A stretch of DNA of 64,000 nt from contig CALSSL010000002.1 of NCBI GenBank assembly GCA_943789005.1, positions 141,716-205,715 of the forward strand. Direction: 5' to 3'. Below are positions 36,078 through 48,114 of the stretch, in pieces; positions within the stretch are counted from its first letter, which is position 1; each line of letters opens with the position of its first letter. Under the pieces are notes generated by a model. It saw nothing but the letters and a program-made list of their open reading frames with translations. It was not told the DNA's origin and searched no databases. A program made the translations under genes and the position numbers. This DNA is from an uncultured SAR86 cluster bacterium (lineage in GTDB: Bacteria; Pseudomonadota; Gammaproteobacteria; Magnimaribacterales; D2472).

Positions 36078-38729
<2,652 letters not shown>

Positions 38730-39829
38730 CTAAACTCCTGCTTTTAGACTAGTTTTCATAAATTCATCAAGATCACCATTTAGAACGGCAGCTGTATTTC
38801 CAGTCTCATAACCGGTTCTTAGGTCTTTTATTCTAGATTGATCTAAAACATATGACCTAATTTGACTGCCCCACCCTATATCTGACTTACTTTCTTCAAG
38901 TTCTTGCCTTTCTTCATTCTGTTTCTGTAATTCTAACTCGTATAATTTAGATTTTAATTGTTTAAGTGCATTTTCTTTATTTTTATGTTGAGATCTATCG
39001 CTCTGACACTGAGCAACAACACCAGTTGGTAGTATGTGTAAGTCTTACTGCTGAATCAGTCTTATTCACATGCTGCCCGCCTGCACCAGAAGCTCTATAA
39101 GTATCGACTCTTATGTCAGCATTATTTATATTAATTTCAATAGAATCATCAACTTCTGGTGAAATAAAGACTGAGGCAAATGAGGTATGCCTTCTACTTC
39201 CTGAGTCAAAAGGTGATTTTCTAACCAGTCTATGAATCCCTGTTTCTGTTCTAAGCCATCCATAAGAGTATTCTCCACTAACATGAAGAGTTGCAGATTT
39301 AATACCAGCAACCTCACCATGCGATATTTCAGTGAGATCTATTTCAAACCCTCTACTTTCAGACCATTTTGAGTACATTCTTAAAAGCATTTCTGCCCAA
39401 TCCTGAGCTTCTGTTCCACCAGAACCAGATTGAATCTCTATATAGGCAGATGCAGGATCCATTTTATTAGTAAACATTTTACTAAATTCAAGCTCAGATA
39501 CTAATTTTTCCATACTCATGAAAGCTTTCAATGATTTCTTTTATAGATGCCTCATCTCCCTCTTCTTGTGCTATATCTATAAACATCAATCCATCTGAAA
39601 CTTTTTCTTCGGCAGATTTAAAAGATGCTAATGATTTTTCTAATGCAGTTTTTTCTTTACTTATTTTTTGTGATAACTCTAAATCTGACCAAACCTCTTC
39701 CTTAGCAAGATCTTCTTCAATTTGTTTTAGGCGATTTTCTTTTGATGAAACATCAAAAACTCCTTCTCTAATTTCATCTAAACGAAGTTTTAGGTCATTT
39801 AGACCAGATTTTAATTCACCTGCATCCAT
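38730..39829 (-). pseudogene. prfB: Peptide chain release factor 2, frame interrupted twice (about 39521-39523 and 39028-39036); neither break is the canonical programmed site
   Basis: Three frames join into a 366-codon RF2 (SPF-containing [10 protein letters not shown] in [11 protein letters not shown]). The C-terminal 100 aa (...[12 protein letters not shown]...[12 protein letters not shown]...) are readable in the third frame down to a TAG at 38730, abutting the lysS ATG. Confidence 0.93.
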
Positions 39830-39928
39830 ATTAAGAGTTATTCTTTGATAATGAAATCAAAAATTAAATCTTTTGATGCCGGGAAGTTATAGGCTCTTTC
39901 TTCATTATCAAATATTACGGAAAGACTA

Positions 39929-41224
39929 TTAGGGTATGTCTTCTAATGTTAAATTAGCATTTTTTATTACTTCAGGGAATTTAGCTGGATGAGCTGTTGA
40001 TAAAATAATAGTTTTACCTTGAATGTCTAGTGATATTCTCTCAACTGCCTCAGATGCTACCGCTGTATGAGGATCAATAAGATAATTAAACTTTTTAAAG
40101 GTATGCTTCATTGCTTCTATTGTTGAAATATCATCAACACAGTAACTCAAGAAAGATATCTTTAGATTTGTTCCACATATTTTCTTCAAGCTTAATTGGC
40201 GATGCTGGAAAATTTTCATAGAAATCTGCACACAGACTTGAGTCTCTTTCTGCATAAAAGTCATAAACTAATCTCTCAAAATTACTAGCAATGCTTATGT
40301 CCATGCTTGGCGAAATGGTCTCGCGAACTTTTGTTTTTGAATAATCATTATCAGAAAAAAATCTATGCAAAATATTATTCTTCATTTACTGCTACTAAAA
40401 TTTTATTTAAGCGGCATTCCCATTTTATGTGCAGAATAACAAGCAAATACGTTACCAAAATTTCCTGTGGGAACAGAGAAATTTAAAGGTTCGTTATAAT
40501 TTGTGATTTTTAAAGAAGCATAAAAATAATAACAAATCTGACCTATTATTCTTACCCAGTTGATAGAGTTTACAGCCAATAAAAATTGATCATCTTTTAA
40601 AAAACTTCTTTCACTGAATGCCTTTTTTACAATTGCCTGGCAGTCATCAAATGAACCATTGACTCTTAGTGTAAAAACATTAGGACTGTCGACTGTAGTC
40701 ATTTGTCTTCGCTGTACCTCAGACATATTGCCATCGGGCAGTAATATGAAGCTTTTGATAGAATCAAATCTTTTACATGCATCTATTGCAGCAGAACCAG
40801 TATCTCCTGAAGTAGCTCCAAGAACTACTGCAGTTTTACTTTGTCTTTTTAGAGACTGATTAAAAAAAGCTGCTGCTAACTGAAGGCCAAAATCCTTAAA
40901 TGCTGCTGTTGGTCCATGAAAAAGTTCTAGAACATATTTTGAATCATCTAATTGATGAATTTCGGCAAGGTTGTCTTTTCCAAAATCATGCCATGTTTTA
41001 TCTAATATATTTAAAACCTCATCATCTGAAAAAGATGATTTTGTAAAAAGTGGAACAATATGTTTTGCAATATCTAAAAATGAGTTTAATGACTTTAAAT
41101 GCTCTAAATCAACTTGTGGCCAGTTATCAGGCATAAACAATCCACCATCGTTAGCCAAGCCTTGCATAAGAACTTCTTCGAAGGTGCGTCCAGAATCATT
41201 ACCTCTTGTACTGTGAAATAGCAT
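39929..41224 (-). pseudogene. thrC: Threonine synthase, frame interrupted three times (about 40403-40410, 40376-40386, 40151)
   Basis: ORFs 40403..41224, 40134..40385 and 39929..40264 are colinear with ThrC (PLP Lys in AFKDFG, SGDTGSAA). The first and last pieces share a frame, consistent with three 1-nt insertions. Confidence 0.9.
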
Positions 41225-41226
41225 AT

Positions 41227-42495
41227 TTATTCAGCTTCGATTCTAATAGATCTAATTGTCTTTACAGAATCTAAATTTAAAAGCTCTTTACTTAACAAAG
41301 AGTGATCCTTCTCTTTAAAGGGGTCAGTTATTAAAATAATAGGAACACTTTCACCATTCAATTCTTCTTTTTGCACAATTGATTCAATACCTACTTCTCT
41401 TGATGCAAGTAGTGATGTAATGGAAGCCATAACCCCTGGAATATCTAATGCTTCAATATAAAAATAATATTGGAAAATGAGTTCAGAAAAATCTGACATA
41501 GGTGGATTTATTCTATTGTTTAGTGCGCCAAAAGTATTTATATCTACTGAGGAATATAAATGTATTAAATCTGATATCAGGCCTGATGCTGTTGATTCTT
41601 GACCTGCTCCTGACCCTGCTATATGTAATTTTCCTATCAAATCAGTATCAATTTCCATACCATTTCTAACGCCTTTTAACTTGGCCAAATGAGAATTAAG
41701 ATTTATCAATGCAGGATGTGCTCTTAACTCAACCATACCGTTTTCTAGCTTTGCTACAGCAAGATGTTTTACTGTATATCCCATATCCATGGCATAGTGA
41801 AAATCACTCTTATCTATCTTTGTGATGCCTTCAATATGAAAATCTAATGGAGGCAACGGGGTTCTAAAGGCTAAAGAAGACAGAATGCCAATTTTATGTG
41901 CTGCATCCATTCCCTCTATGTCAAAAGTAGGATCAGGTTCTGCGTAGCCCTCTTCTTGAGCAAGCTTTAGTGTTGAATCAAAATCCTTACCTTCTTCCAT
42001 ATTTGAAAGAATAAAATTAGAGGTTCCGTTCAACATTCCAGAAATCTTTGAAACTTTATTTGCAGCTAGCTCCTCTTTTAATAATTTAATTATTGGTGTT
42101 CCTGCACATACTGATGATTCAAATAACACTCTGATTCCATGCTCTCTAGCAGACTGAAAAATCTCATCTCCATGATGGTAAATAACTGCTTTGTTAGCAG
42201 TTACAACATGTTTTTTATTCTTTATGGCCTTTAAAATAAGCTCTCTTGCAACCTCAACACCGCCTATAAGCTCTACAACAACGTCAATATCGTAATCTAA
42301 TACTGCAAAAATATCTCTCTCTATTGGAGTTTTACCAGGATCACATTTGGGGTTATCTCTTCTTGCGCCTATAACTTCAATTGAAAAATTAGCCCCAGAG
42401 TTTAATTTAATAGCTTCAGCATTTTCATTTACAGCTCTAAATAAGCCTGTAGCAACATTTCCCCACCCACAAATACCAACTTTAAGAGTTTTCAT
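41227..42495 (-). CDS. hom: Homoserine dehydrogenase (with C-terminal ACT domain)
   Basis: 422 aa with GICGWGNVATG, the catalytic-domain NGTSNFIL motif, and an ACT-like tail. Confidence 0.93.
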   Translation of the reverse strand: MKTLKVGICGWGNVATGLFRAVNENAEAIKLNSGANFSIEVIGARRDNPKCDPGKTPIERDIFAVLDYDIDVVVELIGGVEVARELILKAIKNKKHVVTANKAVIYHHGDEIFQSAREHGIRVLFESSVCAGTPIIKLLKEELAANKVSKISGMLNGTSNFILSNMEEGKDFDSTLKLAQEEGYAEPDPTFDIEGMDAAHKIGILSSLAFRTPLPPLDFHIEGITKIDKSDFHYAMDMGYTVKHLAVAKLENGMVELRAHPALINLNSHLAKLKGVRNGMEIDTDLIGKLHIAGSGAGQESTASGLISDLIHLYSSVDINTFGALNNRINPPMSDFSELIFQYYFYIEALDIPGVMASITSLLASREVGIESIVQKEELNGESVPIILITDPFKEKDHSLLSKELLNLDSVKTIRSIRIEAE

Positions 42496-43682
42496 TATAT
42501 TTCCATAGATAAAAAGTTTTTAATACCTCGTATTGCTTGCCTTGTTCTATGTTCATTTTCTATTAAAGAAAATCTAACATATTCATCTCCATCCATTCCA
42601 AAACCCGCACCTGGAGATACCGCAACTTGGGCATATTCAATAAGTAATTTACTAAATTCAAGAGAGCCAAGCTTTAAATACTTCTCGGGAATCTTTGCCC
42701 AAACAAACATTGTAGCAAGTGGTTTTTTAACATCCCAGCCAATTCTATTTAAACCATCACATAATTCGTTTCTTCTGCTTTGATACATTAAGCGAATTGA
42801 TTCAACATCACTATCACAATCATTAATTGCTTTAATTGCTGCAACTTGTATTGGGGTAAATGTTCCATAATCCAAATAAGATTTTATCTTAGTTAAAGCT
42901 TGAACTAATTCTGAATTACCACAACAAAATCCAACTCTCCAACCAGGCATATTATATGATTTAGATAATGTAAAAAACTCAATAGCTATATCTTTAGCTC
43001 CTCTCACTTCTAAGATAGATGGTGCTTTGTAACCATCGAATGTTATATCTGCATAGGCAAGATCATGAACAATCCAAATATCATACTTTTTACCAATCCC
43101 TACAATTTTTTTAAAGAAATCTATTGTTACTGACTGAGTTGTAGGATTAGATGGAAAGTTTATTATGACCATCTTTGGTTTTCTTGGTGCTTTTAGAATA
43201 GATTCTTCAATATCAGATAAGAATTCATCCTCATTATCTTTAAGTGTAACCGATTGAAGATTTGCTCCGGCAATAACAACACCGTAAGAATGAATTGGGT
43301 ATGTTGGAGACTGAACTAGCACCGTATCATCTATAGAAAGTGTAGCCAGTGATAGATGTGCTATTCCTTCTTTAGATCCCATGCAGGTAACTATTTCTTT
43401 TTCTTGATCTAGTTCAACATTATATTTTCTTGAATACCAGTTTTTGATAGCCTGACGCAACTTGGGCAGACCAGCAGACTGGGAATATCTATGAGTTGAT
43501 GGGTTTTTAACTGTTTCAATTAATTTATCAACTATTGGCGAAGGTGTTGCTTGATCCGGATTTCCCATTCCAAAATCAATAACGTCTTCACCACGAATTC
43601 TTGCTTCATATTTTAATGAATTAATTTTCGCAAAAATATAAGGGGGTAATTTTTTTGCATTTGTAAAATCTGAATCAGGCAT
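42495..43682 (-). CDS. Class I/II pyridoxal-phosphate aminotransferase (AlaC-like)
   Basis: 395 aa with LPPYIFAKIN...GEDVIDFGMGNPD, the SKSYNMPGWRVG PLP-Lys motif, and NPTT. Confidence 0.8.
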   Translation of the reverse strand: MPDSDFTNAKKLPPYIFAKINSLKYEARIRGEDVIDFGMGNPDQATPSPIVDKLIETVKNPSTHRYSQSAGLPKLRQAIKNWYSRKYNVELDQEKEIVTCMGSKEGIAHLSLATLSIDDTVLVQSPTYPIHSYGVVIAGANLQSVTLKDNEDEFLSDIEESILKAPRKPKMVIINFPSNPTTQSVTIDFFKKIVGIGKKYDIWIVHDLAYADITFDGYKAPSILEVRGAKDIAIEFFTLSKSYNMPGWRVGFCCGNSELVQALTKIKSYLDYGTFTPIQVAAIKAINDCDSDVESIRLMYQSRRNELCDGLNRIGWDVKKPLATMFVWAKIPEKYLKLGSLEFSKLLIEYAQVAVSPGAGFGMDGDEYVRFSLIENEHRTRQAIRGIKNFLSMEI

Positions 43683-43686
43683 GTTG

Positions 43687-44397
43687 TTATGATTTTAATT
43701 TTAATAAAAGCTCTTCAGGCTCAACATATCCTGGAAACATAACTCCATCCATGGAAAAAATTGCAGGAGTACCATTTACACCTAATTTCTGACCAATAAT
43801 ATATTGTTTAGAAACTGGCTGTGTGTCACAGAATGATAAATCTAAATTTTTATTATTTTTTAATTTAGAAATACTATCTTTTGGATTTTCAGAACACCAC
43901 GCTCCAACCATCTTGGTAAAAGCTGATGTACCCATGCCAGACCTTGGAAATGCAGCATAGTGAATTGATATACCTAACTTATTGTATTCTTCGATTTGGT
44001 TATGAAGCTTTCTGCAGTAACCACAATCAACATCAGTAAAAACAATTACAGAAAATTTCTCATTATCTGATTTAAATGAAATCAACTCATTTGAGGGAAT
44101 GTTATTAAGAATGAACTTTCTTTTTTCTGAAATACTGTCTTCGGTAACATTAGAGATTGAGTTATTATTTATATGATAGATGTCACCATAAATAAAGAAT
44201 GAGCCGTCTTTTGTAACATAGATAGGCTGAAGATCTCCATAATAGACCGCAAACATATCCTTAATAGGAGTGGGCTCAATTGATTCAATATTTGCTCCGT
44301 CAGGTAAAATATTTTTTATGCTATTTTTTATTTGCTCTTCTGATGAAGGTAGGGAAGCTGAAAATATAAAAATAAATGAAATAAATAAGTTTTTCAC
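43687..44397 (-). CDS. dsbC: Thiol:disulfide interchange protein DsbC
   Basis: Signal peptide, N-terminal dimerisation domain, and FTDVDCGYCRKLH active site. Confidence 0.88.
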   Translation of the reverse strand: MKNLFISFIFIFSASLPSSEEQIKNSIKNILPDGANIESIEPTPIKDMFAVYYGDLQPIYVTKDGSFFIYGDIYHINNNSISNVTEDSISEKRKFILNNIPSNELISFKSDNEKFSVIVFTDVDCGYCRKLHNQIEEYNKLGISIHYAAFPRSGMGTSAFTKMVGAWCSENPKDSISKLKNNKNLDLSFCDTQPVSKQYIIGQKLGVNGTPAIFSMDGVMFPGYVEPEELLLKLKS

Positions 44398-44398
44398 T

Positions 44399-45286
44399 TT
44401 AACCTCTGGGGTGATGTTTTTTAAGGATTTCGCCTAATCGTTGTTTTGCAATGTGAGTATATATTTGGGTTGTAGATAAGTCACTATGTCCGAGTAAAAT
44501 TTGAACAGATCTTAAGTCAGCGCCTCGATTTAAAAGATGCGTAGCAAAGGCATGTCTAAGTGTGTGTGGTGAAATAGATATTTTAAGATTTGCTCTTTTG
44601 ATATAGATTTTTATTCTTTGCCAAAAAGCGCCTCTTGATATTTTAGTTCCTCTATTACTAAGAAAAATTTCTTTTGATTTTAAATCTTTTCTATCTTTGA
44701 GATATAGGTTAATTGACTCAGCAGCCTTCTCACCAAAAGGAACCAGCCTCTCCTTAGACCCTTTGCCAAAAACTTTTAACACCGACCTGTTAACATCTAA
44801 GTCAGTTAATTTTAAATTTGTAAGCTCAGAAATTCTTATTCCAGTTGCATATAAAACCTCAATCATTGCTTTATCTCTTCTTTCAATTTGAATATTTAAA
44901 TCAGGACTATTTAAAAGTCTTTCTACTTCTTCTTCAGACATAGACACAGGAAGATATTTTTCTTGTTTAGGCATAACAATATCAGCAATAGGCGATTTCA
45001 TAATTATTTTCTTTTTTTGCAGAAAAATATAAAAAGATTTAATAGCTGAAATTTTTCTATTTACCGATGAACTTTTTAAACCATCACCAAATAATTTAGA
45101 AACGTAATTATTGGCATCAGAAGCATTGATGTTTAATGGGTTGAATGATTTTTTATCTAACCACAATAAAAATGATTTTATATCATTTTTATATGAACTA
45201 ACCGTATTATTTGAAAGACCTTTTTCGATATATAAAGAATCTAAAAAGGAATCAATCAAATGATCCTTTTTATTTTCTATAGTCAT
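44399..45286 (-). CDS. xerD: Site-specific tyrosine recombinase XerD
   Basis: 295 aa with the catalytic R...HTLRHAFATHLL...LLGHSDLSTTQIYTH pattern, in the conserved dsbC-xerD position. Confidence 0.92.
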   Translation of the reverse strand: MTIENKKDHLIDSFLDSLYIEKGLSNNTVSSYKNDIKSFLLWLDKKSFNPLNINASDANNYVSKLFGDGLKSSSVNRKISAIKSFYIFLQKKKIIMKSPIADIVMPKQEKYLPVSMSEEEVERLLNSPDLNIQIERRDKAMIEVLYATGIRISELTNLKLTDLDVNRSVLKVFGKGSKERLVPFGEKAAESINLYLKDRKDLKSKEIFLSNRGTKISRGAFWQRIKIYIKRANLKISISPHTLRHAFATHLLNRGADLRSVQILLGHSDLSTTQIYTHIAKQRLGEILKKHHPRG

Positions 45287-45290
45287 TTGA

Positions 45291-45966
45291 TTAATCTAAT
45301 CTTTCTTTGATTCTGGCGGATTTGCCTGATCTATCTCTTAGATAGAAAAGTTTAGCTTGTCTTACGTCACCTTTTCTCTTAACTTTAATAGAGTCTATTA
45401 ATGGGCTGTGTGTCTGGAAAGTTCTTTCCACACCAATTCCACTTGAAATTTTTCTAACTATAAAAGAAGAGTTAAGGCCGCCCTTTTTAACTCCCATTAC
45501 AACACCTTCAAAGGCCTGAAGTCTTGTTCTGTCACCTTCTTTAACTTTAACAGATACAACAATTGTATCTCCAGGTCTAAATGGTGGTATATCAGTTTTT
45601 AATTGCTTAGTTTCAAAATCATTAACAATCTGAGCAGGCGTTCTTTCTTTAAGCGATATAGATGGGGTGTTATCTGCTTCTTCAGCAACTACTTCTTCTT
45701 CAGCAGGAGCTTCTTCAGCAACTACTTCTTCTTCAGCAGGCTTCTTCAGCAACTACTTCTTCAGCAGGAGCTTCTTCAGCAACTACTTCTTCAGCAGGAG
45801 CTTCTTCAGCAACTACTTCTTCAGCAGGAGCTTCTTCAGCAACTACTTCTTCAGCAACTACTTCTTCAGCAACTACTTCTTCAGCAGGAGCTTCTTCAGC
45901 AACTACTTCCTCAGCAGAATCTTGCAATTCTTCGTTATTTTTATTTTCTTTGTCAGATTCGTTCAT
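45291..45966 (-). CDS. rplS: 50S ribosomal protein L19 with an N-terminal acidic-repeat extension (frame break near 45736-45748 inside the repeats)
   Basis: The conserved L19 core ([29 protein letters not shown]...) has no ATG/GTG/TTG next to it. As read, the ORF starts at a TTG inside the repeats (45752). The only ATG is at 45966 ([25 protein letters not shown]...). Confidence 0.85.
45676..45913 (-). repeat. Tandem array of about 15 units of 15/18 nt (GCAGGAGCTTCTTCA / GCAACTACTTCTT(CTT)CA on the plus strand), encoding APAEE / VVAE(E)E on the minus strand
   Basis: I tokenised it directly. All units are multiples of 3 except a 13-nt variant at 45736-45748. Confidence 0.95.
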
Positions 45967-45985: not shown

Positions 45986-46714
45986 CTATAGGATATCCTT
46001 AGATTCCCATTCTTCCAAGAGTTTTTTTTGTTTTTTTGATAATTTTACCTTATTTATTAAATCTGGTCTTCTTAAGTGCGTTTGAATAAGCGATTTAGCA
46101 GCCTTCCAGGCCTCAATTTTACCATGATCACCAGATAAAAGAACTTTTGGGACTTCTAATTCTTCAAAGATTTCAGGTCGAGTATATGAAGGACCTTTTA
46201 AAAGACCATTAGAAAAAGAATCATTATCAACAGAATCCTTATTGCCGATAGTTCCGGGAAGATTTCTAGCAATTGAATCAATTAAGCATATTGCCGCATA
46301 TTCGCCACCGCTCATTATAAAATCTCCAATAGAGATCTCTTCATCAACATATTTATCTATAAATCTTTGATCAACACCTTCGTATCTTCCACATATCAGT
46401 GTTATAGATTTCATGGTTGAAAGCTCTTTAACTTTATCTTGAGTTAACTTTTTTCCTTGTGGTGATAAATAAATAACATGACCCTTATCTTGTTTTGGTA
46501 TATCTAAAATAGAGTCTTTTAAAGGTTCAGGCATCATTAGCATGCCTTCTCCACCACCATAAGGTTTAGCATCAATTTGTCCGTGTTTATTAATAGCATG
46601 TTTTCTTATGTCATAACAATTTAGAAAAAAATTATTATTAATTCCTTTTGAGACTACCCCATATTCAAATATTTTAAAGATTTCAGGAAAAATTGTGAGA
46701 ATATTAAATTTCAT
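45986..46714 (-). CDS. trmD: tRNA (guanine37-N1)-methyltransferase
   Basis: 242 aa with the SPOUT/TrmD motifs (ICGRYEGVDQR, SIGDFIMSGGE). Confidence 0.95.
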   Translation of the reverse strand: MKFNILTIFPEIFKIFEYGVVSKGINNNFFLNCYDIRKHAINKHGQIDAKPYGGGEGMLMMPEPLKDSILDIPKQDKGHVIYLSPQGKKLTQDKVKELSTMKSITLICGRYEGVDQRFIDKYVDEEISIGDFIMSGGEYAAICLIDSIARNLPGTIGNKDSVDNDSFSNGLLKGPSYTRPEIFEELEVPKVLLSGDHGKIEAWKAAKSLIQTHLRRPDLINKVKLSKKQKKLLEEWESKDIL

Positions 46715-46716
46715 GA

Positions 46717-47259
46717 TTAAAAACTTTTATCCCAATTTACAAAAATAGTTGACTCTTCTCTGTTGATTGATGAGATAAATTTATCGATTACAAATGGAAT
46801 TAATCTATTTTGATCATCTATGGATTCTTGTGTTGGTATTAATTCAAGGCAATCATTTGCGCCATAATTATTAAGGTTTTCTACAATACCTAAAATATCT
46901 TTAGATTTGACGTCTATTACCTTCATTCCTATCAATTCATACCAATAAGCCTCATTCTCTTCTGCCTCAGGTAAGGAATCCTTATTTATAAATATATTTA
47001 GGTTTGTATACTTCTTTATGGAATCGATATCATCGATACCAAAAATTTTGGCATACATTTTTGAATTAATTTTTTTTATATATTCAATTTTAAAATCTTT
47101 TATTAAATTATCTTGAATATAAAAACTATTGTAGTTAAGAAGATTTTCTTTTGGTGTGCAAAAAGAATTAATAAAAAATTCACCTATGAGGCCTCTTGGC
47201 TTGCCAACAGAGGCTATACAAATATAGTTACTTGATTCTGATTTATTTGCTTTCATCAT
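46717..47259 (-). CDS. rimM: 16S rRNA processing protein RimM
   Basis: The likely start is MMKANKSESSNYICIASVGKPRGLIGEF at 47259. The ORF-track start at 47310 is an out-of-frame repeat reading. PRC-barrel C-terminus. Confidence 0.88.
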   Translation of the reverse strand: MMKANKSESSNYICIASVGKPRGLIGEFFINSFCTPKENLLNYNSFYIQDNLIKDFKIEYIKKINSKMYAKIFGIDDIDSIKKYTNLNIFINKDSLPEAEENEAYWYELIGMKVIDVKSKDILGIVENLNNYGANDCLELIPTQESIDDQNRLIPFVIDKFISSINREESTIFVNWDKSF

Positions 47260-47291
47260 CTGAAGAGTCTTTATCCTTAGACTCTTCTTCA

Positions 47292-47737
47292 GCAGGAGCT
47301 TCTTCAGCAACTACTTCTTCTTCAGCAGGAGCTTCTTCAGCAGGAGCTTCTTCAGCAACTACTTCTTCTTCAGCAACTACTTCTTCTTCAGCAGGAGCTT
47401 CTTCAGCTAGGAGCTTCTTCAGCAACTACTTCTTCTTCAGCAGGAGCTTCTTCAGCAGGAGCTTCTTCAGCAGGAGCTTCTTCAGCAACTACCTTCTTCA
47501 GCAACTACTTCTTCTTCAGCAGGAGCTTCTTCAGCAGGAGCTTCTTCAGCAACTACTTCTTCTTCAGCAGGAGCTTCTTCAGCAGGAGCTTCTTCAGCAG
47601 GAGCTTCTTCAGCAGGAGCTTCTTCAGCAGGAGCTTCTTCAGCAACTATCTTCTTCAGCAACTACTTCTTCTTCAGCAGGAGCTTCTCTTCAGCAGGAGC
47701 TTCTTCAGCAACTACTTCTTCTTCAGCAGGAGCTTCT
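47292..47737 (-). repeat. Tandem array of about 28 units of the same 15/18-nt repeat between the rpsP core and rimM
   Basis: I tokenised it directly. There are four off-length units: 16 nt at 47406-47421, 16 nt at 47485-47500, 16 nt at 47642-47657 and 17 nt at 47676-47692. All other units are 15 or 18 nt. Confidence 0.95.
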
Positions 47738-48114
47738 CTGACTTCTGCCTTTGCAGCAGCTGCTTCAGCTGCTCTTTCCTCAGCTTCTTTGGCTAGTCTT
47801 GCTTCAATAGCTGCTTTTTTAGCATCTGCTTTTGCTTTTTTAGCATCTAATTTAGCTTTAAGTTCTTCTGGAGATAGATTTGCTTCTTTAACAAGAGTTT
47901 GCACTCTATCGCTAACTTGAGCACCTTTTGAAACCCATTCATTTAGTTTGTCTAGGTCAAGCCTTAATCTTTCTTCTTGACCGCTAGCAGAAGGATTAAA
48001 AAATCCTAATCTTTCAATGAATTTACCGTCTCTTGGGCGTCTTTCATCTGCAACAGTTATAAAGTAATAAGGGTTTTTCTTTGCCCCACTTCTTGCTAAT
48101 CTAATAATTACCAT
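47662..48114 (-). CDS. rpsP: 30S ribosomal protein S16 with a Lys/Ala/Glu-rich and acidic-repeat C-terminal extension (coordinates are the as-read ORF; the repeat frame can be followed to 47243)
   Basis: The conserved S16 core ([41 protein letters not shown]...) is followed by [17 protein letters not shown]... and then [11 protein letters not shown] repeats. The as-read stop follows an out-of-frame KLLLKKK. Confidence 0.9.

Follow-up and report, generated by a model that had tools for sequence, protein, structure and literature searches.

An acidic tandem-repeat extension of ribosomal protein bL19 in the SAR86 cluster and its probable disruption by an assembly error

Introduction

This study concerns rplS, the gene of ribosomal protein L19 (bL19), in a 64,000-nucleotide (nt) stretch of DNA from an uncultured SAR86 cluster bacterium of the Magnimaribacterales (GenBank assembly GCA_943789005.1, contig CALSSL010000002.1, positions 141,716 to 205,715 of the forward strand). 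The whole stretch is called the window in the following, all coordinates refer to it, and all genes and features described are located on its minus strand. There, rplS is the last gene of an operon with the order rpsP-rimM-trmD-rplS, followed by xerD and dsbC. The Pfam domains of S16, RimM, TrmD and L19 are found consecutively, and the same order is present in all relatives. An original prediction, made from the letters of the window, had noted an array of acidic repeats between trmD and the conserved L19 core and proposed that a shift of the reading frame within this array separates the core from its true start codon.

SAR86 bacteria are among the most abundant bacterioplankton and have streamlined genomes. 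Typical bL19 proteins comprise about 115 amino acids (aa), and their start codon is located beside the core. Lineage-specific extensions of ribosomal proteins are well known, and in bacteria they are usually basic and bind ribosomal RNA (rRNA). Acidic flexible segments which extend off the ribosome surface and are not bound to rRNA have been described as well, namely the P-stalk/bL12 hinge-and-tail and the poly-Glu tail of bS6. These cases concern other proteins and other positions, and the tail in question is either short or equipped with a defined domain for factor binding.

Here, we describe the structure of rplS in the window, compare it with the corresponding loci of other SAR86 genomes and metagenome contigs, and weigh the explanations for the interruption of its reading frame. 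In addition, the related repeat tail of S16 and the possible role of both repeats are considered.

Results and Discussion

Structure of the rplS gene

The conserved L19 core (AQIVNDF...KERLD) is encoded at 45291..45635, including the stop codon at 45291-45293, and comprises 114 aa with a net charge of +11. As read, it belongs to a 153-aa open reading frame (ORF) at 45291..45752, of which residues 42-151 match positions 2-111 of the 111 positions of PF01245 with 158.1 bits (cut-off 22). The restored protein described below matches TIGR01024 (rplS_bact) at positions 2-113 of 114 with 152.5 bits (cut-off 90.7) and, judged by these sequence matches, is unambiguously a bL19. Upstream of the first core codon at 45635, the sole ATG, GTG or TTG in the L19 frame is the TTG at 45750..45752, directly preceded in frame by a TAG (45753-45755). 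It arises where a repeat unit is read in the wrong frame (MLKK...). Thus, the original prediction was correct both in that no usual start codon adjoins the core and in the origin of this TTG. Other, rare start candidates in the same frame are CTG 45749, ATA 45659 and ATT 45629.

The acidic tandem-repeat array at 45677..45915 consists of 16 units, one of them out of frame, as determined with Tandem Repeats Finder (TRF) and by a unit-by-unit parse; TRF itself reports 45676-45917 with a period of 30, 7.9 copies, 90% matches and a score of 392. The units have a length of 15 nt (GCTGAAGAAGTAGTT, encoding AEEVV, or GCTGAAGAAGCTCCT, encoding AEEAP) or 18 nt (AEEEVV). The frame of the array is broken at a single unit of 13 nt, GCTGAAGAAGCCT at 45738..45750, which lacks two nucleotides (CT/TC) in comparison with GCTGAAGAAGCTCCT. 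This is the frame-shifting unit recognized before as GCAGGCTTCTTCA at 45736-45748 of the plus strand, since GCTGAAGAAGCCT at 45750-45738 of the minus strand is the same unit in another cyclic register. The break gives rise to a TGA at 45733..45735 and thereby closes an upstream ORF (45733..45966), which opens at ATG 45966 and encodes an acidic repeat protein of 77 aa as read.

Insertion of two nucleotides into the 13-nt unit joins both ORFs to a single gene (45291..45966) of 225 aa, which begins at ATG 45964..45966 and carries an extension of 111 aa in front of the core, close to the length of about 110 aa that had been proposed. The ATG is located 19 nt past the trmD stop codon in a conserved junction sequence, TATCCTATAGCACTTTTTAGGCAAATATAATG, and the relatives encode the corresponding protein as one ORF. 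The restored L19 thus departs from the family norm in its length and in a start codon that is not adjacent to the core. As shown by the comparison with relatives, the encoded protein is built of four parts, namely a conserved, non-repetitive N-terminal head of 17 residues (45916..45963 without the start codon), about 16 acidic units, a conserved repeat-to-core junction (45636..45676) with the pattern (V/I)SLxE(K/R)(T/S)P found across SAR86, and the ordinary 114-aa core. The apparent pair of a 77-aa acidic ORF and a TTG-started L19 of 153 aa would then be the product of a 2-nt deletion in one unit.

Distribution of the extended L19

A protein search with the restored L19 returned hundreds of proteins of 170-230 aa bearing an L19 domain, for which the label given by JGI is 'large subunit ribosomal protein L19'. 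These proteins show the head, acidic repeats, a ..NTPS(I/V).. junction and the core. On the nucleotide level, an uninterrupted ORF leading from the ATG through an acidic segment into the core was found in 45 of 48 SAR86 genome loci with an L19 core (extension of 53-252 aa). In an independent set of metagenome contigs, all 19 complete rplS genes are intact, six more are open to the contig end and none is broken; over both sets, the length of the extension ranges from 42 to 252 aa. The closest relatives, with about 98-99.9% nucleotide identity in the flanks and an L19 core identical to 100%, encode an extension of 67-104 aa in one ORF. Nearly all SAR86 loci have kept the junction of trmD stop and ATG (TATCCTATAGCACTTTTTAGGCAAATATAATG), also those of subclades in which the extension differs, and the head M-N-E-S-D-K-E-N is near-invariant, both across the loci and in an alignment of SAR86 L19 proteins (A1).

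The repeat itself is variable. Its motif differs between SAR86 subclades, some of which have non-repetitive acidic sequence instead, and acidity, head and junction are kept throughout. Between close strains, the number of repeats changes in whole units of 15, 18 or 30 nt, so that the frame is always preserved. Accordingly, of 13 database proteins with a core identical to that of the window, 12 are intact, with 186-218 aa and differences of whole repeat units, and the remaining one (P0064, 170 aa) is frame-broken. A phase-variable contingency locus was considered and rejected, as gain or loss of 15/18-nt units keeps the frame and the break in the window is a 2-nt deletion within a unit.

Outside SAR86, the loci of the same scan encode an ordinary L19 whose start codon precedes the core by 1-7 residues. 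Only L055, from the Gammaproteobacteria metagenome-assembled genome (MAG) HM.31, is exceptional, with an acidic, non-repetitive L19 extension of at least 87 aa and a core 78% identical to that of the window. Two further loci with cores of 70% identity, L052 and L054, have a normal L19; L052 shows an acidic S16 tail, and S16 was not recovered at L054. These three loci may mark the phylogenetic boundary at which the L19 extension originated.

Single ORFs throughout the clade, the conserved junction and the short L19 of the outgroups argue that the extension is real and lineage-wide and that ATG 45966 is the true start. We therefore regard an acidic N-terminal extension as a highly probable trait of bL19 in SAR86/Magnimaribacterales as a whole, with its translation supported by conservation of the frame over more than 60 loci. 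This is in agreement with the extension proposed from the window. Among the relatives, neither a usual start codon near the core nor an rplS of normal length behind a repeat-free trmD-rplS spacer was found.

The presence of rare in-frame start candidates would also permit a different reading, in which the array is a non-coding regulatory or structural spacer and L19 is initiated at ATT 45629, ATA 45659 or CTG 45749. Its probability is practically negligible. The units are multiples of three, and the frame is open from the conserved ATG in the 45 genome loci and 19 metagenome loci mentioned above despite very different repeat sequences and lengths. Furthermore, a conserved peptide junction (...SLKERTP) is encoded upstream of ATT 45629, and some subclades have a predicted folded protein domain in the same position. 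A search against Rfam with E<=1 gave no family match but two sub-threshold chance matches, and a scan for promoters and terminators stayed at or below the shuffle expectation without enrichment.

Origin of the frame break

Six sister assemblies (L209-L214) come from the same population, all with an XerD identical to that of the window. Apart from the arrays, L208/L213 shares 99.9% identity with the window, and 100% in trmD, xerD and the L19 core. The 13-nt unit is not present there, and its rplS array instead contains two different units of 16 nt at other places. The non-triplet units of rplS differ in every case, with 13 nt in the window, 19 nt in L209, 17 nt in L210, 19 and 17 nt in L212 and 16 and 16 nt in L213, and none is present in L211 and in the short-read assembly L214. 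In the metagenome contigs, the junction containing the aberrant 13-nt unit has no exact match, compared with at least 119 matches for the junction of the canonical unit. The aberrant units are insertions or deletions (indels) of 1-2 nt within a unit, and the same types recur in unrelated arrays and assemblies. In MAG L033, which represents another species, such breaks have left the L19 core without any start codon upstream, and the gene as read there cannot be a working essential gene.

Further irregularities are found in non-repetitive DNA of the window. In comparison with five sister assemblies, thrC and prfB contain seven extra single bases (40408, 40383, 40155, 39931, 39849, 39516 and 39032). 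The first five fragment the threonine synthase gene thrC (39831-41224), a single gene of 462 aa in the sister assemblies. Likewise, prfB (38730-39829), the gene of release factor 2, reads through three frames in the window and is one gene of 365 aa in the sisters; its extra bases are located in the A-run GGAAAAATT (39516) and as an extra C in CATACTACC (39032), neither of them at the classical +1 recoding site.

Tandem repeats mutate by changes of whole units. Since indels of 1-2 nt within a unit do not fit this mode, the frame break is very probably an artefact. The sister assemblies, the junction counts and the insertions in thrC and prfB strongly support that the 2-nt deletion in 45738-45750 stems from the assembly, as a consensus error left uncorrected, and does not belong to the genome itself, in line with what the original prediction had implied. 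On the whole, a single extended rplS together with an assembly error at the break is, with high probability, the best explanation of the locus. Under this explanation, the split rplS, the fragmented repeat tail of rpsP and the broken thrC and prfB would all be assembly artefacts.

It is known that polishing does not remove all indel errors of long reads from repeats and that the residual ones fragment genes (Polypolish paper, PMC8812927). A like pattern is present in the window and in assemblies with records named contig_N, _pilon or LRMED. In contrast to the published case, the sequencing technology behind the window is deduced from the pattern of errors and the naming of the sister assemblies; by their record names (contig_N, _pilon, LRMED, FRAM), the broken assemblies would be long-read assemblies. 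As a consequence, automatic annotation of such assemblies miscalls or shortens L19, which is called as fragments of 68 aa or 170 aa on sister contigs.

Several observations weigh against an assembly error. One aberrant unit of rpsP (47408-47423) is common to the window and the independent assembly L213, and two of the thrC insertions (40408 and 40383) are common to the window and L209; lesions shared in this way could be either systematic errors or real variants. Moreover, short-read assemblies collapse the arrays and could in principle skip a real aberrant unit. Judged from assemblies rather than reads, a private mutation of the strain is possible but unlikely.

If the 2-nt deletion were real, the 77-aa acidic ORF and an L19 shortened to begin at TTG 45752 would be made separately, the latter maybe by termination-reinitiation, with the stop of the upstream ORF 17 nt downstream of the TTG, and the extension would be truncated at the level of the strain. 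The TTG would still yield a complete core with an extension of 39 aa, the wide natural range of extension lengths suggests tolerance, and the lesions shared between independent assemblies are not obviously random. Nevertheless, we consider a real deletion improbable, given the missing metagenomic matches of its junction compared with those of the control, the sister assemblies of the same population which lack the 13-nt unit and carry other breaks, and the frame-broken state of the essential prfB in the same window. In addition, the arrays contain five breaks within about 0.7 kb; none of these is a whole-unit change, which does not agree with the known modes of repeat mutation.

A programmed +1 ribosomal frameshift at GCC TGC TGA A (45741-45732), similar to that of prfB, would also join the two ORFs, as a +1 shift at the TGA enters the L19 frame. 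Shifts of the prfB type depend on a slippery P-site codon, a poor stop context and an upstream stimulator resembling a Shine-Dalgarno sequence, and tRNA-Cys cannot re-pair in the +1 frame. The site in the window is not a slippery context of the CUU-UGA-C type. It is private to the window, its junction is without match in the metagenome contigs, and in the relatives the ORF simply runs through. To bridge the four breaks in rpsP, further shifts of -1, +1, +1 and +1 would be needed at unrelated contexts. The prfB gene of the window itself appears to lack the classical recoding site, as the region around codon 26 reads straight through (EGVFDVSSKEN). With a site neither conserved nor slippery and five breaks of different kinds, programmed frameshifting is scarcely conceivable here and was rejected.

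The repeat tail of S16

At the other end of the operon, rpsP (47243..48114) encodes S16 (bS16), with a match to PF00886 at residues 8-68 (81.5 bits, cut-off 27). Its C-terminal acidic array at 47284..47737 (TRF and unit parse) is composed of 15/18-nt units as in the rplS array, and within the genome of the window both arrays have identical DNA units. Four aberrant units were found: GCTGAAGAGAAGCTCCT with 17 nt at 47678..47694, which has no counterpart in L209-L214; GCTGAAGAAGATAGTT with 16 nt at 47644..47659, located by the unit parse; GCTGAAGAAGGTAGTT with 16 nt at 47487..47502, of a type also present in the rplS array of L208/L213; and GCTGAAGAAGCTCCTA with 16 nt at 47408..47423, the only break common to another assembly (L208/L213). 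Because of these four units of 17, 16, 16 and 16 nt, the tip of S16, ESKDKDSSDDESK followed by the stop codon, is present in the window but stranded in another frame. Repair of the four units restores a protein of 289 aa with core, acidic repeat and this conserved tail, in which the tail accounts for about 180 aa and a net charge of -70.

Intact S16 proteins of relatives have the same build, with a core, acidic repeats and the tip ..E(S/E)(E/K)KDSSDDE(S/K)K at the C-terminus, a total length of 153-303 aa and a 14-nt overlap of the gene with the rimM start. In the sister assemblies, uninterrupted S16 proteins have 187-303 aa. The rpsP gene is fully in frame in L209, L210 and L214 (303, 260 and 198 aa), which means that the long arrays are genuinely coding. 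In some other lineages, the two proteins carry different motifs (L008, L009 and L011 with EEVVAEAAEEVSEEST in L19 and AEEEAP in S16), and in the lineage of the window, compared here together with L004, both arrays are built of identical units. Any concerted evolution of the arrays would therefore be lineage-specific.

Properties and possible role of the extension

The restored L19 extension of 111 aa consists of 35% Glu, 21% Ala, 16% Val and 7% Pro, contains only 4 Lys or Arg residues and has a net charge of -38. For alignment A1 of 23 SAR86 L19 proteins, AlphaFold2 (AF2) yielded a folded core with a predicted local confidence (pLDDT) of 70-84. The N-terminal ~100 residues were modelled for the most part as coil with pLDDT below 50, namely in segments 1-3 and 14-90. 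The model thus predicts that the extension is intrinsically disordered. Searches of the extension against Pfam and NCBIfam gave only sub-threshold low-complexity matches (HC2, histone-H1-like). The extensions of the subclades are all rich in Glu, Ala, Val and Pro; their motifs differ, and neither sequence nor length is conserved.

Taken as a physical object, the extension would be a disordered polyanion punctuated by prolines, which stands out from the ribosome surface with a net charge of -38 on L19 and about -70 on S16. To find such polyanionic tails on both subunits throughout a clade is unusual, since extensions of bacterial ribosomal proteins are usually basic and bind rRNA. Composition, charge and both ends are conserved, and the sequence and length of the repeat are not. 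For this reason, the extension most likely serves as a spacer or 'bristle', acidic and flexible and with the conserved head at its distal end, and not as an rRNA-binding element. Such a spacer could act as an electrostatic or entropic shield, tether the head or assist the basic core as an intramolecular chaperone. Two points stand against a functional interpretation of this kind. The role is read from sequence and a structure model, and conservation of the L19 head could also reflect a constraint on translation initiation, and that of the S16 tail its overlap with the rimM start.

A more far-reaching idea, to which we assign a low probability, is that the repeats are length-tunable tethers, homogenised between the two operon arrays by gene conversion, which hold distal modules off each subunit. 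Through these, SAR86 ribosomes would recruit a partner or be placed or organised inside the very small cell, such as at the membrane or with respect to the nucleoid. The modules would be the MNESDKEN head, the amphipathic helix KKKGFFSRLFGG with a three-helix domain in other subclades and the KDSSDDESK tip of S16. If true, one of the most abundant marine bacteria would decorate its ribosomes in a way not recognised before. In any case, the streamlined SAR86 bacteria invest 50-250 additional residues in bL19 and 50-190 in bS16, both of which are highly expressed.

Known extensions of these two proteins offer partial parallels. In the spinach chloroplast ribosome, mature bL19c comprises residues 78-233 and the cryo-electron microscopy model residues 118-232, and the unmodelled N-terminal segment is located near helices H100/H101 of 23S rRNA (PMC5071890). 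Both this segment and the SAR86 extension are additional N-terminal parts of bL19 and apparently disordered. The chloroplast segment has about 40 residues as opposed to 53-252 in SAR86 and is not reported as a tandem acidic repeat (PMC5071890). The analogy between the two is one of position, and they are likely of independent origin. By analogy with bL19c, the SAR86 extension, which leaves from the N-terminus, would be expected at the lower rim of the 50S subunit. A C-terminal extension of 65 aa is known for bS16 of Cutibacterium acnes, in which the distal part is flexible and not seen and another part is ordered and binds uS4 (PMC10085706). Again, long C-terminal extensions of bS16 are common to both systems. 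In SAR86, the tail is an acidic tandem repeat of 50-190 residues with the KDSSDDE(S/K)K tip overlapping the rimM start, in contrast to the partly ordered extension of C. acnes. Acidic tails of S16 rich in Ala and Glu also exist outside SAR86 (L052, L055, L056 and Methylophilus).

An isolate of the cluster has been obtained, Ca. Magnimaribacter mokuoloeensis HIMB1674 (10.1101/2024.03.17.584874). A literature search on SAR86 L19, N-terminal extensions of bL19 and acidic L19 extensions, including the isolate paper, gave no prior description, and the extended acidic bL19 is thus apparently undescribed. New relative to known extensions are its size (2-3 times the protein), the strongly acidic tandem repeat, the pairing with bS16 of the same operon through the same DNA units and the presence in a marine lineage that is streamlined and very abundant.

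N-terminal module in other SAR86 subclades

SAR86A-like subclades have a longer L19 extension of 128-252 aa with a conserved module in front of the acidic repeats. This module starts with KKKGFFSRLFGG and reads MSDNKDNKKKGFFSRLFGG... followed by LNKMKKADIV..AK.NGL.LDI.LTK..LL.AW..HF. It was found at the loci L022, L024-L027, L029, L030, L034-L037, L039, L041, L043-L046, L048, L050 and L051 and in the proteins P0096, P0107 and P0121-P0240. AF2 predicts a short helix and a confident three-helix unit (pLDDT ~92, residues 42-81). The module has no family match in Pfam or NCBIfam, and a database search with its domain returned only N-termini of SAR86 L19 proteins. A likeness of KKKGFFSRLFGG and the acidic region of these N-termini (class b) to the N-terminus (A-domain) of FtsY was unsupported; phmmer against PDB sequences gave only the motif GFFSRLFGG in a BamC chain (E=0.04). 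For a candidate HeH/SAP-like fold of the class-b domain, Foldseek of the AF2 model against the PDB gave no match with E<=0.001 and, as the only hint, a SAP-containing nuclease chain at E~0.8.

Neighbouring genes and further assembly anomalies

Between the two ribosomal protein genes, trmD (45986..46714) matches PF01746 with 174.6 bits and has 100% nucleotide identity to L208. The encoded TrmD is 90% identical to that of the single-amplified genome (SAG) AAA168-P09 and 60-82% identical to those of many SAR86 SAGs and MAGs. The rimM gene (46717..47256, Pfam RimM/PRC) encodes 179 aa, the same length as in relatives. Its start is ATG 47256 (MKANKSES...), again as in relatives, and overlaps the end of rpsP by 14 nt; the TTG 47310 at which the rimM ORF opens in the ORF list is located within the repeat (MLKKLLLKK...).

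The window and L213 differ by 3 mismatches in 4384 bp at 41291-45674 (41.3-45.7 kb) and by about 55 in 2.6 kb at 38600-41300, and the jump in divergence falls in the stretch which holds the stray insertions. This points to a recombination boundary or to a consensus that is a mosaic of two strains.

Public assemblies also contain chimeric ORFs, in which an S16 core is followed by repeat and an L19 core (278-309 aa) or, in reverse, an L19 N-domain or head by repeat and the S16 tip. Examples are L207 (3576-4445) and the proteins P0072, P0087, P0101, P0104 and P0114, as well as P0123, P0166 and P0192. In L207, rimM and trmD are missing between the fused parts and the flanking synteny is normal, which indicates that these ORFs result from assembly collapse across the shared repeat and are not real gene fusions. 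The S16::L19 fusion proteins in annotations arise because the two arrays share DNA sequence and assemblers jump between them.

Finally, assemblies of SAR86 genomes are systematically interrupted at the rpsP and rplS arrays. Very frequently, short-read contigs stop precisely at one of them (L001, L007, L009, L013, L031, L032, L038, L040, L047 and L049), as do many of L088-L206; the 1487-bp contig L001, for instance, comprises rimM-trmD only.

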